The translations under genes and the position numbers were made by a program. 64,000 bases of DNA from a virus (lineage: Duplodnaviria; Caudoviricetes): IMG/VR virus record IMGVR_UViG_2786546475_000015, positions 32,001 through 96,000 of that record; one strand, 5' to 3'. Shown piece by piece: positions 7,967 through 61,559 of the stretch (positions within the stretch are counted from its first letter, which is position 1; every line of letters begins with the position of its first letter). The notes beneath the pieces are model-generated. The model was not told the origin of the DNA, made no database searches, and saw only the letters and a list, made by a program, of their open reading frames with translations.

Positions 7967-8353
7967 ATGATATCAATGACTGATTATCAAAAATTAAGAG
8001 AATTAGGTTTCCAATACCTAGATTCACCTTATTTTTGTGAAAAGGATAGACTCAAGTTCAATATCAAGCGTGAGGAACACGTAAACCTTGTGTACGCCAT
8101 TTTAATTGACCAGAAGTTGAAGTATATTGGTAGAACAAAAGATTTCAATGTACGCGTACACACGTACAGGAACGCCAAATACTGGTGTAATGCGTTTACA
8201 TCAAATAAGGTTAAAACGGACAGACTAGAAAATGCGGTTCGTCGTGGTCGTCAAGTAGAATTCTATTGCATTTATAGTGATAACTATGATACTCTAGAAG
8301 AAGAATTAATAAGTCGGTTCAATCCGACTTGGAACAAATACTTATGTTGTTGA
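7967..8353 (+). CDS. denA: GIY-YIG endonuclease II (host DNA degradation)
   Basis: LVYAILIDQKLKYIGRTKDFNVRVHTYRNA...VEFY...LEEELISRFNPTWN aligns with T4 EndoII. Confidence 0.85.
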   Translation: MISMTDYQKLRELGFQYLDSPYFCEKDRLKFNIKREEHVNLVYAILIDQKLKYIGRTKDFNVRVHTYRNAKYWCNAFTSNKVKTDRLENAVRRGRQVEFYCIYSDNYDTLEEELISRFNPTWNKYLCC

Positions 8354-20193: not shown

Positions 20194-20646
20194 ATGAGTA
20201 ATTTTTCAGAAAAGTTTATTAACAACATTAAAGAAAGTCTTACCGAAATGGATAGTTCTTGCGAACATGTCGATTTCGGTAATGTGTTAGAGTATATCAA
20301 ATCACTAGAAGCTGATGTTGAATACTGGAAATCGAAAGCTATGAAGCCGACCACCATGTATGATCGTGTCGTTGATGTTTCTCGAAAAGTAAATCCACGA
20401 ATGTGTAGCTATGTTATGCTAAAAGTCATGGAAGAAGTTGGCGAATTAGCGGAAGAAGTTAATATCAATAGTGGATTTATCAACAAACCAGTAGGTAAAG
20501 ATGGTGTTTTAGGTGAAGCTATCGACGTAATCGTTACTGTAATGGATATCATTTATTTGACTAATCCAGATATTACTAACGACGAACTGACAACTATTTT
20601 AGATAAGAAATTATCTAAATGGTACAATAATTGTAAACAAGTTTAA
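20194..20646 (+). CDS. MazG-like NTP pyrophosphohydrolase
   Basis: KVMEEVGELAEEV...GEAIDVIV...KKLSKW (EExGE...E..D motif). Confidence 0.85.
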   Translation: MSNFSEKFINNIKESLTEMDSSCEHVDFGNVLEYIKSLEADVEYWKSKAMKPTTMYDRVVDVSRKVNPRMCSYVMLKVMEEVGELAEEVNINSGFINKPVGKDGVLGEAIDVIVTVMDIIYLTNPDITNDELTTILDKKLSKWYNNCKQV

Positions 20647-49403: not shown

Positions 49404-50336
49404 ATGGGATTCAAAAGAAGTAACATATCTAAAATCCAAAATCAACTAGATAACATGACTTCTAGTAACAACTACGAAGATAAAGATGAATGGAAACTTG
49501 CCACCGATTCAGCGGGAAATGGTAATGCCATTATCCGATTCTTACCAAGTAAAGATGATGACAGTCTACCGTTTGTTAAAATTTACACACACGGATTTAA
49601 TCATAAAGGTCAATGGTTTGTTGAGAATTGCCCTACCACACTTAATAAAGATGGTGAAACGCTTAAATGTCCAGTATGCGAATCTAACAGTGAATTATGG
49701 AATACTGAATTAGAAGCCAACAAAGATATTGCACGTGATCGTAAGCGTAATCTTTCTTATTGGTCTAATATCATGGTTATTAAGGATAGTAAAAATCCCG
49801 AAAACGAAGGTAAAGTATTCAAATACCGTTTTGGTTCTAAGATCATGGAAAAAATTCAGAAAGCGGCGAACCCACCAGAAGAATTAGGTGATGATCCAGT
49901 TGATGTTACTTGTGTTTTTGATGGTGCAGATTTCTTCTTGTCTACTAAGAAAGTTAGCGGTTATCAAAATTATGATGACTCGCAATTTAAATCGCCAAAA
50001 CCGATTAAGAATATCGATGATGAAGAATATCAAGATGAATTGATGAAACAAATGCACGATTTGAATAAAATTGTTGCGCCAGATCAGTTTAAATCTTATA
50101 ATGATCTTAAAAAACGATTAGACCGTGTTATTGGTGAAACTAAGTCAGCTTCAAAAGCAACGGCTGATGCGGAAAAAGAACTAGACGATTTCGATACAGA
50201 ATTAAATTCTGCTAAGAATGAAGGTAGTGTAGATGATGACGTTTTTGATGATGACGTTAGCGATTCCGTTGATTCGTCTGCTGATGTTGACGATGACGAT
50301 TTAGATGATCTATTAGATGGTTTAGACGAAGATTAA
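49404..50336 (+). CDS. 32: Single-stranded DNA-binding protein gp32
   Basis: EWKL..D..GNG.A.IRFLP, HGF, ENCP...CPVC zinc site, acidic C-terminal tail. Confidence 0.97.
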   Translation: MGFKRSNISKIQNQLDNMTSSNNYEDKDEWKLATDSAGNGNAIIRFLPSKDDDSLPFVKIYTHGFNHKGQWFVENCPTTLNKDGETLKCPVCESNSELWNTELEANKDIARDRKRNLSYWSNIMVIKDSKNPENEGKVFKYRFGSKIMEKIQKAANPPEELGDDPVDVTCVFDGADFFLSTKKVSGYQNYDDSQFKSPKPIKNIDDEEYQDELMKQMHDLNKIVAPDQFKSYNDLKKRLDRVIGETKSASKATADAEKELDDFDTELNSAKNEGSVDDDVFDDDVSDSVDSSADVDDDDLDDLLDGLDED

Positions 50337-50338
50337 TT

Positions 50339-50362
50339 AAGGGGGCTTTCGCCCCCTTTTTT
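50339..50362 (+). terminator. Intrinsic terminator after gene 32
   Basis: aagggggc-tttc-gccccctt plus T-run. Confidence 0.85.
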
Positions 50363-50375
50363 GACCGAGGAATAT

Positions 50376-51218
50376 ATGAAAGAATATAAAGAAGTATTAG
50401 AATATACACTCAAACATGGTTCTATGAAAAATAATAGAACTGATTACAAAACTTTATCTACTAACGCATATCTAAGTAGAATGGATGTTAGTGATTCATT
50501 TCCAGCTACAACAATTAAAAAGATTGCATGGAAACCAGCGGTAGGTGAATTCCTATGGATGGTAAGTAGTTCAACAAATGTCAATGATTTACGAGAGATT
50601 ACTTATGGTAAGGGTTCTGATAAAAAGACTATTTGGGATGCTAACTACGAACATCAAGGTAAAAATTTAGGTTATGTAGACGGTTATATGGGTAAAATTT
50701 ATGGTCACCAATGGCGTAAAGGTAAATTCGATCAGTTACAACGCGTGATCGATAAGATTCGTACTATTGGCGATGATCGTAGATTATTAGTTAATTCATG
50801 GAATATCGACGATTTAGAAACGATGGTAGTACCACCATGTCACTACGCGTATCAATTTTATGTAGATGGTGATAAATTAAGCCTATCGTACGTCATGCGC
50901 TCTACTGATTTAGGTCTAGGCTTACCCTTTGATAATGTACTTTATGGGCTTCTGCTTTATGTAGTCGCACAAATGACAGGTAAAAAACCGCACATGCTGA
51001 ACTTTATTAATTCTGGCGATATTCATATTTATGAAAATCATATCGATGCGGTAAAAGAAATGTTAAAACGTGAACCTTATCCAGCACCGAAACTAAATAT
51101 TAAAACACCGTTCGATCAAAATTCTACGTTGGAAGATGTAGTAAAGAGTGGTGTAGAAAACTTTGAATTAGTTGACTATAAATGTCACCCACGTATAAAG
51201 ATGGACATGGCGGTATGA
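50376..51218 (+). CDS. td: Thymidylate synthase homolog with Asp at the Asn177-equivalent site
   Basis: TTIKKIAWK, YG.QWR, RRLLV.SWN, PPCH, RSTD..LGLPF-D, GDIHIYENH, MAV C-terminus; no intron. Confidence 0.92.
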   Translation: MKEYKEVLEYTLKHGSMKNNRTDYKTLSTNAYLSRMDVSDSFPATTIKKIAWKPAVGEFLWMVSSSTNVNDLREITYGKGSDKKTIWDANYEHQGKNLGYVDGYMGKIYGHQWRKGKFDQLQRVIDKIRTIGDDRRLLVNSWNIDDLETMVVPPCHYAYQFYVDGDKLSLSYVMRSTDLGLGLPFDNVLYGLLLYVVAQMTGKKPHMLNFINSGDIHIYENHIDAVKEMLKREPYPAPKLNIKTPFDQNSTLEDVVKSGVENFELVDYKCHPRIKMDMAV

Positions 51219-51622
51219 CGAAAGAAGAAAAACGAAAATATACCACAAAAATTGTACTTAGAACAATTGGTGTAATCGCATTACTAGGTTATTGTTTATT
51301 ATTCCTGTATGTAAACTATAATACCGAACGTAAGGGTATTACTAGTACACATGATTGGACATACCAAGGAATCGAAATTGTTCCGCATGTCTACCCAAGT
51401 AAAGCCGAAGTGAATGAAGCGTATAAAGTATGGGTTAGTAGTCAAGGTTACAACTACGACCACCAAGAACGTGTTGGGTGGGCTACGTGGAGTGACGATA
51501 ACTATTGCGAAGTTCATTTTCCTAGAATAAAAAACGAAAACGATAAAGAAACATTAGAAATAATTGGTCATGAAATTGCCCATTGTTTCTATGGAAATTG
51601 GCATAAAGAGGTTAGTAAATGA
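51215..51622 (+). CDS. Membrane-anchored HEXXH metalloprotease-like protein
   Basis: N-terminal TM helix; C-terminal GHEIAHCFYGNWH. Confidence 0.65.
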   Translation: MTKEEKRKYTTKIVLRTIGVIALLGYCLLFLYVNYNTERKGITSTHDWTYQGIEIVPHVYPSKAEVNEAYKVWVSSQGYNYDHQERVGWATWSDDNYCEVHFPRIKNENDKETLEIIGHEIAHCFYGNWHKEVSK

Positions 51623-53871
51623 GAGTTACTAAAAGTTCTGGTATCACACAAGAGTATGACGAAGATAAAATTTTAAATGTTATTAAGTGGGCTTCATATG
51701 ATTGTGAAATTGACCATAACAGTATCTTAGAAGAATTAAACCAATACATGTATGATGGTGTTTCTACGAAATCAATCCACAAAAATTTAGTAAAAATCTG
51801 TGCTGATAAGATTTCAGTTAACACACCAGAATATCAATATGTTGCCGCAAGAACATTGATGTTTGGTTTACGTAAAGATGTATACGGTTGTTTTCAACCA
51901 CCTAAACTATACGACCATATTAAGCATAAAACTATTATAGGCGTATACGACAAAGAAATTTTACAAAAATACTCAAAAGAAGAAATAGATTTACTCGACG
52001 AATACATCGATCATGATAAAGATTTTGATTTAAGTTATGCGGGCGCGATGCAACTTAAAGAGAAATATCTAGTGAAAGACCGTTCTACTGGTGAAATTTT
52101 CGAAACTCCGCAGTTTGGTTATATGTTAATGTCTATGTGTTTACACCAAGAAGAAGATATTACCAAGCGTATTGAACGTGTTGTTAAGTTTTATGATGTG
52201 GTTTCTAAAAAGAAATCGAGTATGCCTACACCAATTATGGCGGGTGTACGTACACCGACCAGACAATTTAGTTCGTGTGTGTTAATTGATAGTGGTGATG
52301 ACTTAGAAAGTATTAACGAAACTTCATCGGCTATCGTTAATTATATTTCTAAACGTGCGGGTATCGGTATTAATGGTGGTCGTATTCGTGCGGAAGGTTC
52401 ACGAATTCGTTCTGGTGAAGTACGTCATACTGGTGTTATCCCATTTTGGAAATACTTTCATGCCGCGACTAAAAGTTGTAGCCAAGGTGGTGTTCGCGGT
52501 GGAGCGGCAACTATTTATTACCCATTATGGCATTTAGAAGCAGAAAAATTATTAGTTCTTAAAAATAATCGTGGTGTTGATGAAAATCGTATTCGTCAAA
52601 TGGATTATGGTGTTCAGATTAATCGACTTATGTATGAACGTCTAGTTAATAACGATTATATTACGCTATTCAGTCCTGATGTTGCGAATGGTAAACTATA
52701 CGAATATTATTTTTCTGATCCAGATAGATTTAAACAAGTATATGAAGCTCTAGAAGCCGATACAACGGTACGAAAGAAAAGAGTAAGAGCATTAGAGCTA
52801 TTTTCTAATTTAATGCTTGAGCGTTCTAGTACGGCGCGTATTTACATACAAAATGTAGATAATGTAAACCAAAATAGTCCGTTCCAAGAACCTATCTATC
52901 AAAGTAATTTATGCGCCGAAATCGCGTTACCTACATCACCTATTATGAAAGATAGTGGTGAAATCGCATTGTGTACATTGGCGGCATTTAACTTAGGCGA
53001 ATTAGAATACGACGAAATTGATGATGTAGCGCTTACAGTGGTTCGTGCATTAGATAACCTATTAGATTATCAACATTATCCAGTAAAACAAGCGGAAAGG
53101 GCTAAACTACGTAGAAGTTTGGGTATCGGTGTAATCAATTACGCATATTTCTTAGCTAAAAACTTTACTAGTTACAGCGAAGATGATTCTAAAGAATTGA
53201 CGCATGTTTGGTTTGAAAAGATTCAGTACGCATTAATTCGTGCTAGTATGTTACTTGCTAAAGAAAAAGGTAGTTGTGGTGACTTTGATAAAACTACATA
53301 CGCTCAAGGTATTTTACCTATCGACCGTTACAATAAAAATGTAGATAAATTGACCGACAATAAGCTATATTGCGATTGGGAAAGTTTACGACAAGATATC
53401 ATGCGTTATGGTATGCGTAATAGTACTTTATCCGCATTAATGCCTAGTGAGTCAAGTTCACAAGTCCATAACGCTACAAATGGTATTGAACCGCCACTTG
53501 GTAGAGTTAGTGTAAAGGGTTCTAAAGATGGTGTATTTAATCAAGTAGTTCCAGAAGTTGATACATTAGGCGATGAATATGAATATGCGTGGGAATTAGC
53601 CGCTAAGGGTAATAAAGGATATATCGAAAAAGTAGCTATCATGCAAAAATTTGTGGATCAAACGATTTCATCTAATACACGTTATGATCCGTCGATTTAT
53701 CCTGATAATAAAGTTCCTATGAATGTTATGCTTAAAGATTTATTAACATGCAACCATTACGGAGTCAAAACTTTATACTACCACAATACACGCGATGGGG
53801 CTGATGGTTCGGAAAGTACAGAAGAAGTTGAAGTCGTTAGAGATAGCGACTGCGATACATGCAAGGTGTAA
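51619..53871 (+). CDS. nrdA: Class Ia ribonucleotide reductase alpha subunit
   Basis: ATP cone, PTPIMAGVRTPTRQFSSC, SQGGVRGG, SNLCAEI, LYYHN, C-terminal CxxC. Confidence 0.98.
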   Translation: MRVTKSSGITQEYDEDKILNVIKWASYDCEIDHNSILEELNQYMYDGVSTKSIHKNLVKICADKISVNTPEYQYVAARTLMFGLRKDVYGCFQPPKLYDHIKHKTIIGVYDKEILQKYSKEEIDLLDEYIDHDKDFDLSYAGAMQLKEKYLVKDRSTGEIFETPQFGYMLMSMCLHQEEDITKRIERVVKFYDVVSKKKSSMPTPIMAGVRTPTRQFSSCVLIDSGDDLESINETSSAIVNYISKRAGIGINGGRIRAEGSRIRSGEVRHTGVIPFWKYFHAATKSCSQGGVRGGAATIYYPLWHLEAEKLLVLKNNRGVDENRIRQMDYGVQINRLMYERLVNNDYITLFSPDVANGKLYEYYFSDPDRFKQVYEALEADTTVRKKRVRALELFSNLMLERSSTARIYIQNVDNVNQNSPFQEPIYQSNLCAEIALPTSPIMKDSGEIALCTLAAFNLGELEYDEIDDVALTVVRALDNLLDYQHYPVKQAERAKLRRSLGIGVINYAYFLAKNFTSYSEDDSKELTHVWFEKIQYALIRASMLLAKEKGSCGDFDKTTYAQGILPIDRYNKNVDKLTDNKLYCDWESLRQDIMRYGMRNSTLSALMPSESSSQVHNATNGIEPPLGRVSVKGSKDGVFNQVVPEVDTLGDEYEYAWELAAKGNKGYIEKVAIMQKFVDQTISSNTRYDPSIYPDNKVPMNVMLKDLLTCNHYGVKTLYYHNTRDGADGSESTEEVEVVRDSDCDTCKV

Positions 53872-53874
53872 TTA

Positions 53875-55014
53875 ATGACAGTATTTAATCAAGCTAACGT
53901 TGATCATTTGAATCAACCTATGTTTTTTGGTGAAGAATTGGGTATAGCCCGATTCGACACCTACAAGCATTCACAATTTGAGAAGTTAACAGAAAAACAA
54001 CTTTCATTCTTTTGGCGTCCAGAAGAAATTGATGTTTCTAGAGACGCAATCGATTATAGTAAGTTATCAGAAGCGGAACAACACGTGTTCACCGCTAATT
54101 TAAAGTATCAGACGTTATTAGATAGTGTACAAGGTCGCGCACCGAGTGTAGCGTTTTTACCTATCGTTAGTGATACTGCGTTAGAGAACTGGATCGAAAC
54201 TTGGTCTTTTAGTGAAACTATTCATTCACGCTCTTATACTCATATTATGCGAAATGTTTACAACGATCCATCAAAAGAGTTTGATAATATCGTTAGTAAT
54301 CAAGAAATTATGAAACGTGCTAGTGTAGTGACTAAACATTATGATGAATTAATCGCGGTAGCTAGGAAATGGAATGATTTAGTCGAGACGACTAATTGGG
54401 ATAAAGACGAAACGTTGACGGATATAGAAGAATTGCTACGTAGAAAGTGTAAAGAAAAACTTTACCTTACTATGATGGCTGTTAATATCTTAGAAGCTAT
54501 TAGATTCTATGTAAGTTTCGCGTGTTCGTTTAATTTCGCAGAAAATCAATTGATGGAAGGTAACGCTAAAATCATCAAGCTAATCGCACGTGACGAAGCG
54601 CTACATCTAAAGGGTACTCAATATATCTTGCAACAATGGCATCGTGGTAAAGACGATCCAGATATGCACGATATAGCAGAAGAACTTAGACCAGAAGCGA
54701 CACAATTATTCTTAGATGCTGTTAAACAAGAAAAATCGTGGGCTGAATATTTGTTTAGTTTTGGGTCTATTCGCGGATTGAGTTACAAAAAATTATGTGA
54801 ATATATCGAGTATGTCGCAGATCATCGTATGCGTTCGGTTGGTTTAGATAGTCCGTTCCAACGTAAAAAAGAAAATCCTTTACCTTGGATGCAGAAATGG
54901 TTGAATAGTGATGCGGTACAAATCGCACCACAAGAAGCCGAAATATCTAGTTATTTAATCAATCAAGTCGATCAAAACGTTGATGTGACCGATTTATCTA
55001 AATACGAATATTAA
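53875..55014 (+). CDS. nrdB: Class Ia ribonucleotide reductase beta subunit
   Basis: FFWRPEE, LLDSVQGR, ETIHSRSYTHI, EAIRFYVSF, RDEALH, APQE. Confidence 0.98.
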   Translation: MTVFNQANVDHLNQPMFFGEELGIARFDTYKHSQFEKLTEKQLSFFWRPEEIDVSRDAIDYSKLSEAEQHVFTANLKYQTLLDSVQGRAPSVAFLPIVSDTALENWIETWSFSETIHSRSYTHIMRNVYNDPSKEFDNIVSNQEIMKRASVVTKHYDELIAVARKWNDLVETTNWDKDETLTDIEELLRRKCKEKLYLTMMAVNILEAIRFYVSFACSFNFAENQLMEGNAKIIKLIARDEALHLKGTQYILQQWHRGKDDPDMHDIAEELRPEATQLFLDAVKQEKSWAEYLFSFGSIRGLSYKKLCEYIEYVADHRMRSVGLDSPFQRKKENPLPWMQKWLNSDAVQIAPQEAEISSYLINQVDQNVDVTDLSKYEY

Positions 55015-61022: not shown

Positions 61023-61559
61023 ATGGTAATGAAATTTAATTTGATTATGGCTGTTGATTTTGCCGATAATATCGGTAAGGGCGATGGTTTACCTTGGAAA
61101 CAAAAAGCTGATATGATTCGATTCGTAGAACTTACAGACGGTCATACCGTTGTCATGGGGCGTAAGACGTTTGAATCAATCGGCAAAAAATTACCAAATC
61201 GCATTAATTTGGTTGTCACATCCGAACCAGAAAAAATGGAAGAAAAGTATGGCGACCAAGGTTTAAGTTTAATATTTCTCAATTTCGAATCGCTGAAAGA
61301 ATTTCTTGATACTACTAGTTTCACAAAAGATAAGGTATTCTTCATTGGTGGTCGTTCCATTTGGGAATGGGCTTTTGAAAATGGGTATGCGGAATGTGTT
61401 TACCTAACTACCGTATGTAATGCGCGGGTTGATTTAGGTGATATCAAATATCCAGAAATTAGCGAGCGAATAAAAGAATACGATGTTGTTTACGATTTGT
61501 TTGCAACACAAGACAAAGACAATGATTTCAATTGCCGATTCTACAAGTTGAAACTATGA
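61023..61559 (+). CDS. frd: Dihydrofolate reductase
   Basis: IG....LPW...DM..F...T.GH.VVMGRKTFESIG..LPNR.N.V; FIGG. Confidence 0.95.
   Translation: MVMKFNLIMAVDFADNIGKGDGLPWKQKADMIRFVELTDGHTVVMGRKTFESIGKKLPNRINLVVTSEPEKMEEKYGDQGLSLIFLNFESLKEFLDTTSFTKDKVFFIGGRSIWEWAFENGYAECVYLTTVCNARVDLGDIKYPEISERIKEYDVVYDLFATQDKDNDFNCRFYKLKL

Follow-up and report, generated by a model that had tools for sequence, protein, structure and literature searches.

An aspartate-177 thymidylate synthase homologue in a marine T4-like phage: a predicted dCMP methylase whose product may serve mainly as a thymidylate intermediate

Introduction

What does an enzyme of the thymidylate synthase (TS) family make when the asparagine at its dUMP/dCMP specificity position is an aspartate, and where does the product go? 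The question is raised by a gene at 50376-51218 (+ strand) of the window, by which we mean the whole 64,000-nucleotide stretch analysed, i.e. bases 32001-96000 of a complete IMG/VR phage genome (165,977 bp, with direct terminal repeats). A first-pass annotation had read this gene as a candidate dCMP methylase, with two possible fates for 5-methyl-dCMP: a 5mC-substituted genome, or a dCMP to 5mdCMP to dTMP route passing through a deaminase.

Earlier work has described and assayed this enzyme class, the rule for its specificity and the deaminase route, with Xp12 and metavirome enzymes. Asp177 (E. coli numbering) switches the substrate from dUMP to dCMP in engineered enzymes, as cited in PMC8670742. 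In vivo, 5mdC was made by five of seven metavirome Asp177 enzymes and by the Xp12 enzyme, and deaminase-family enzymes convert 5mdCTP to dTTP (bioRxiv 10.1101/2024.12.05.627091). From in vivo assays it is also known that enzymes with a bulky hydrophobic residue 143 give methyl products and those with an acidic residue there hydroxymethyl products, and that Asn169 (D169N) is the mark of 5-hydroxy-dCMP synthases (PMC13326640). The phage enzyme is a new td-derived member of this known class, in a new marine T4-like lineage.

Results

The gene occupies the td slot of a T4-like phage

The phage, which occurs in marine metagenomes (none of the sequencing runs listed as containing it is of RNA), is placed among the T4-like myoviruses by gene order and similarity. 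Its UvsX, gp41 and NrdA are 54-57% identical to those of T4, its DNA polymerase is just 44% identical to that of any isolate, and the G+C content of the complete genome is 34.6%.

The td-type gene encodes 280 aa, from an ATG at 50376, preceded by a GAGGA Shine-Dalgarno sequence, to a TGA at 51216-51218. Its upstream neighbour, as in T4, is the gene for the single-strand DNA-binding protein gp32 (49404-50336, +), after which a G+C-rich terminator hairpin followed by a T run can be read from the sequence at about 50340-50362 (+), just 5′ of the TS start. Downstream come an ORF for a small membrane-anchored HExxH protein (51215-51622, +), nrdA, encoding the large subunit of ribonucleotide reductase (51619-53871, +, 57% to T4), and directly after it nrdB, for the small subunit (53875-55014, +). 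The TS stop overlaps the start of the small ORF (ATGA), whose end in turn overlaps the start of nrdA, and these three genes are therefore read as a translationally coupled unit. The td slot recognised by the first-pass annotation, with its order gene 32-TS-orf-nrdA, is found again in the contig of P0002, the sole close relative (72% identity), where the order rnh-dsbA-gp59-gp32-TS-orf-nrdA is the same as in the phage.

Two neighbours deserve a separate mention. The small protein has a membrane helix at its N-terminus, an HExxH (GHEIAHC) at its C-terminus, and no matching family in Pfam or PHROG; its counterpart at the same place in the P0002 contig is 49% identical and retains the HExxH. A weak match to gp42 (E 0.12) on the ORF downstream of TS was put down to chance. 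As for nrdA, its frame in the P0002 contig (L014:6332-9568) is at least 1079 aa long and runs off the contig, against 750 aa here, which suggests an insertion such as an intein.

The TS product matches Pfam Thymidylat_synt (PF00303) with an E value of 8.4e-76 over profile positions 1-266 of 266, and scores 199 bits on TIGR03284, for a cut-off of 108. Its best match of solved structure is T4 td (1TIS, E 5.6e-64), and it keeps an intact TS C-terminus; the earlier description of the protein as ThyA- or td-like rather than gp42-like stands. It is about 44-47% identical to T4-like td, and has in common with T4 td the T4-type insert after NVNDLR, the gene 32-nrdA slot, the catalytic residues and the C-terminus. 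It differs from T4 td by the replacement of Asn177 by Asp, of Ala179-Ser180 by Val-Leu and of Gln165 by Met, by the lack of an intron, and by an frd gene that is not adjacent.

Aspartate replaces asparagine at position 177

In the HMMER alignment to 1TIS, ...RSTDLGLGLPFDNVLY pairs with ...RSVDVFLGLPFNIASY gap-free, and with both HMMER and MAFFT the segment RSTDLGLGLPF-D-NVLY pairs gap-free with RSVDVFLGLPF-N-IASY. As the alignment to solved TS structures has no gap, Asp186 (GAT, 50931-50933, +) occupies the position of E. coli Asn177, 31 residues past the catalytic Cys155 (TGT, 50838-50840, +, within PPCH; E. coli Cys146), exactly as had been noted from the sequence. Asn is present at this position in the E. 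coli and T4 enzymes, and characterises dUMP-specific thymidylate synthase (EC 2.1.1.45), in which it reads uracil and keeps cytosine out. Asp is found in the same alignment column in T4 gp42, another point on which the first reading was right, and in the Xp12 TS homologue. Among the 269 most similar TS-family proteins, position 177 is Asn in 256 and Asp in 11; P0002 also has Asp. The rest of the active site is retained in the alignment of these 269 homologues (R21, E58, W80, Y94, R126/127, C146, H147, R166, S167, D169, H207 and Y209, the phosphate-binding Arg residues among them), and the C-terminal closing segment ...KMDMAV is intact.

A sequencing or assembly error, or a gene in decay, might have produced such a codon. 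Three more marine runs, belonging to two other studies, have contigs in which GAT at 50931-50933 is unchanged, which brings the codon to four runs (X1-X4) and three studies overall. These contigs differ from the TS gene of the window at 25 other positions, 22 synonymous and 3 non-synonymous. The four runs, the 22:3 ratio and the Asp in P0002 rule out error or decay, to which we give practically no credence. Judged from its sequence, the gene is a real, expressed-looking T4 td orthologue under purifying selection.

A second change accompanies Asp177. Residues 179-180 are Val-Leu in the phage enzyme (Val188, Leu189) and Ile-Leu in P0002; among the 269 homologues, Ala179 is found in 247 and Ser180 in 254 (about 93%). 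The hydrophobic 179-180 pattern recurs in unrelated Asp177 viral TS families. In the tree, the phage TS clade is long-branched and falls within the T4-like td group; as drawn, the tree has two origins of Asp, and its well-supported branches are compatible with one. The convergence at 179-180 and the long branch both point to an adapted enzyme more than to a stray polymorphism.

Two other residues were considered as markers. Met165 was rejected as a co-marker of Asp177: it is present in 48 of the 269 homologues, most of them with Asn177, and only residues 177 and 179-180 therefore mark the switch. His147, the second discriminating position of PMC8670742, was discarded likewise, since it has not changed in the phage TS or in any other TS-like Asp177 sequence that was examined.

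Asp177 is also found elsewhere. The td-slot Asp variants P0008 and P0033 adjoin frd in T4-like contigs. When IMG/VR viral loci (L017-L031) were recovered by peptide patterns taken from the phage TS, 15 of 17 had Asp at 177.

The active site predicts a dCMP methylase

We infer substrate and product from the sequence, its conservation and its active-site signature, read with published rules. The phage enzyme combines Asp at 177, a non-acidic residue at 143 (Val152) and Asp at 169 (Asp178), as does a dCMP C5-methyltransferase. Asp177, Val143, Asp169 and the intact C-terminus therefore lead to the prediction of a reductive dCMP methylase (5-methyl-dCMP synthase), not of a hydroxymethylase or hydroxylase. 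On this point the first-pass prediction agrees with the published diagnostic residues (PMC13326640, PMC8670742, bioRxiv 10.1101/2024.12.05.627091).

A product such as 5-hydroxymethyl-dCMP or 5-hydroxy-dCMP, destined for a hypermodified cytosine as with T4 gp42 or the RB69/DLP3 5-hydroxy-dCMP synthases (PMC13326640), appears very improbable. Asp177 is common to all these enzymes, and Met165 to gp42 as well. The phage enzyme, however, has a hydrophobic residue 143, not the Asp or Glu of a gp42-type dCMP hydroxymethylase, and has not undergone the C-terminal loss of gp42; it has Asp178 where the RB69 gp48-type 5-hydroxy-dCMP synthase has Asn169. Searches of the genome found no glucosyl or arabinosyl transferase, TET/JBP, alc or denB, and the avoidance of restriction sites described below also speaks against a hypermodified cytosine.

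The closest functional precedents are the Xp12 dCMP methyltransferase and the metavirome Asp177 enzymes (MetaGPA; Yang et al. 2021, PMC8670742; bioRxiv 10.1101/2024.12.05.627091), which have in common with the phage TS the PF00303 fold, the catalytic Cys, Asp177 and Asp169. Those systems, like the phage, also encode a dCMP-deaminase-family enzyme and a DHFR, and in both a thymidine supply by way of 5-methyl-dC nucleotides is proposed. Unlike the Xp12 enzyme, to which it is 25% identical, the phage TS comes from the lineage of T4 td and has retained both His147 and the ...MAV C-terminus; moreover TS, cd and DHFR are dispersed in the phage rather than adjacent. The engineered E. coli N177D and L. 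casei N229D enzymes carry the same single specificity change on a canonical scaffold, whereas the phage enzyme is natural, conserved across strains and in a diverged relative, and bears extra substitutions at 165 and 178-180.

Nucleotide metabolism genes and the dUMP alternative

A search of the remaining genome for gp42, a dCTPase, a dCMP deaminase and a second TS, as proposed with the first reading, returned cd; gp42, a gp56-family dCTPase and a second TS were not found. More broadly, no second TS, ThyX, gp42 or dUTPase (trimeric dUTPase was searched) was detected in the complete 166-kb genome, and the gene at 50376-51218 is the sole TS-family gene of the phage. By tblastn, gp42 had no match to the genome at E 0.01, and T4 gp42, gp56, a-gt, b-gt, dam, alc, denB, tk, ndd, motA and gp1 gave nothing convincing over the whole genome; gp1 was missed in this way and later found by profile, as a member of PHROG 139.

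The cd gene (genome 100325-100825) encodes a T4-type dCMP deaminase, 48% identical to T4 cd. Of the positions that at least 85% of 116 other dCMP deaminases share, none is altered in the cd clade of the phage, so that its sequence gives no hint of 5-methyl specificity. Dihydrofolate reductase (frd, 61023-61559, +, Pfam DHFR_1 E 1.4e-31), which the first-pass annotation had reported correctly, would recycle the dihydrofolate left by a reductive methylase. A MazG-like nucleotide pyrophosphatase (1989-2357, +, PHROG 5658/3301), beside dexA, is a candidate supplier of dCMP from dCTP, and a second one is encoded at 20194-20646 (+, PHROG 1247); both lie outside the T4 gp56 family (gp56 is PHROG 173). 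The specificities of these two proteins and of the gp1-family dNMP kinase (PHROG 139) are putative, and Pfam is blank for all three, as it is for a ParB-like protein.

The kinase gene, at L007:12915-13574 (genome coordinates), maps to the variable a-gt slot, with gp55 on one side and gp47 on the other, and shares this slot with the ParB-like protein and a C5 methyltransferase; in T4, gp1 adjoins gene 3 instead. Just past the window, cd is directly followed (L009:4825-7897, genome 100825-103900) by genes for a T5 A1-like ‘DNA transfer’ protein of PHROG 1745, for a Mom-family DNA modification protein matched by Pfam at E 2.5e-38, and for a NERD/PD-(D/E)XK-like nuclease.

The denA-like endonuclease II gene (GIY-YIG, 7967-8353, +) is present as reported. 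It had been noted as fitting a phage with modified cytosine; endonuclease II homologues exist in more than 1200 T4-like records, and being so widespread in T4-like phages denA is not diagnostic.

With this gene content, the enzyme might still methylate dUMP, alone or together with dCMP, giving ordinary dTMP synthesis and ordinary DNA. Placed in a hydrophobic pocket beside Met165, Val188 and Leu189, the Asp would probably be protonated and would then read uracil. A sole TS in the syntenic td slot, with canonical catalytic residues (His147 included), a hydrophobic residue 143 and a canonical C-terminus, would be expected of such an enzyme, as would the retention of a T4-type cd, which would supply dUMP, and genome statistics resembling those of an unmodified phage. 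Against this, natural Asp177 homologues gave 5mdC when assayed, the 179-180 substitutions converge with those of other Asp177 families, and the clade has a long branch. We consider an Asp-tolerant or dual dUMP enzyme unlikely, and nevertheless a serious rival, because cd has no distinctive changes, His147 is unchanged and the predictions are sequence-based.

Restriction-site avoidance argues against full 5mC substitution

Sites were counted over the whole genome and compared with the numbers expected from a maximal-order Markov model. GGCC was absent (96 expected), as was CCWGG (62 expected); CCGG was found 9 times instead of 158, GCWGC once instead of 38, GGWCC 9 times instead of 48, and GATC 420 times instead of 744. 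Nine 6-bp palindromes were also at zero (CCATGG, CCGCGG, CGCGCG, CTATAG, CTTAAG, GGATCC, GGCGCC, GGTACC and GTCGAC), among them GGTACC with 28 expected, CTATAG with 25 and CTTAAG with 21. In all, at least twelve C-containing restriction sites are extremely avoided, and TCGA, ACGT and TGCA are not avoided.

In the controls T4 (hmC) and Xp12 (5mC), observed/expected ratios were near 1 for GGCC and CCGG, and they were also near 1 in all 14 other distinct IMG/VR Asp177-TS loci. Two Asn177 T4-like loci do avoid sites (CCWGG, 0 for 26 and 0 for 34 expected), and the P0002 contig has no GGCC, for 8 expected. Several of the L017-L031 loci wholly avoid GATC (0 for 26 to 53 expected) and not GGCC or CCGG. 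Since avoidance requires ongoing selection by type II enzymes, and wholesale 5mC removes this selection, the counts argue against full 5mC.

Upstream of the window (L007:10673-12499, genome coordinates) lies a gene for a C5 DNA methyltransferase that looks functional, with motifs I, IV, VI and X all preserved. A Hint/LAGLIDADG intein of roughly 334 aa splits its PCQ motif exactly at the catalytic Cys of motif IV, with junctions GGFP|CFTKD...VVHN|CQPFS. DNA in which all cytosine is 5mC would leave this enzyme without a substrate, which counts against full substitution. Its extein is about 274 aa long, with a very short target-recognition region. An N6/N4 methyltransferase is encoded as well, between gp47 and gp46.

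These data bear on an arrangement like that of Xp12, in which a pyrophosphatase drains dCTP, 5mdCMP is made, the gp1-like kinase phosphorylates it, all cytosine of the virion becomes 5mC, and the deaminase diverts part to thymidine nucleotides. In Xp12 and PaMx74, 5mC takes the place of all cytosine. A full set of candidate genes for such an arrangement is present (Asp177 TS, gp1-family kinase, both MazG-like pyrophosphatases, cd and DHFR, and no second TS), and the TS-cd-DHFR trio is common to Xp12. At least twelve C-containing sites are nevertheless avoided here, as against none in Xp12, T4 or the 14 other Asp177-TS viral loci, a C5 methyltransferase is encoded, and no gp56-family dCTPase was found in the genome. 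We therefore hold this arrangement to be distinctly improbable. The virion DNA looks not to be fully 5mC-substituted, avoidance being a proxy that partial substitution would leave in place; at most, part of the cytosine would be 5mC. Of the two fates first suggested for 5-methyl-dCMP, site avoidance and the C5 methyltransferase disfavour the 5mC-substituted genome, and the route to dTMP through the deaminase is the favoured one.

Discussion

We infer the fate of the product from gene content and genome statistics, and favour, with modest confidence, the following explanation: the predicted dCMP methylase would furnish mainly a thymidylate intermediate, in a phage whose DNA would not be fully 5mC. 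The Asp177 enzyme would convert dCMP and CH2-THF to 5-methyl-dCMP and DHF, the T4-type cd would deaminate 5-methyl-dCMP to dTMP, or the triphosphate to dTTP, with the phage DHFR regenerating the folate. The usual order would thus be swapped, with methylation first and deamination second. Some 5mC may reach the DNA through the gp1-family dNMP kinase. A genome of 65% A+T demands much thymidine, which such a route would supply, bypassing dUMP, in a phage without dUTPase.

dCMP deaminases accept some 5-substituted substrates (EC 3.5.4.12 description). The cd of the phage keeps every position conserved in ordinary T4-type dCMP deaminases, and the one deaminase characterised in the literature, a member of another branch of the family, acts on triphosphates. 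His147 is retained in the phage TS, while it is replaced in the Xp12 enzyme and in gp42. The gp1-family kinase and the MazG-like pyrophosphatases, finally, would also be needed by a phage with 5mC DNA. A more radical statement is one that we put forward only tentatively: the DNA would be canonical and sensitive to restriction, and all thymidylate made by the phage itself would come cytosine-first from the Asp177 enzyme and an ordinary cd, never from dUMP.

Asp177 TS homologues have served as a genomic marker for modified-cytosine phages and as a source of enzymes for methylation sequencing, and an independent td-derived lineage is added here, in marine T4-like phages. The part worth following up is the conflict between the signature of the enzyme and the restriction-site statistics of the genome. 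If dCMP is indeed methylated while the DNA remains largely unmodified, Asp177 could not be relied on to mark modified genomes, and 5mC genomes predicted from such a marker would need a second check. Phages would then use the cytosine-first thymidylate route as plain metabolism, and a dUMP-free route would exist for its own sake, for instance to keep uracil from the DNA of a phage without dUTPase.
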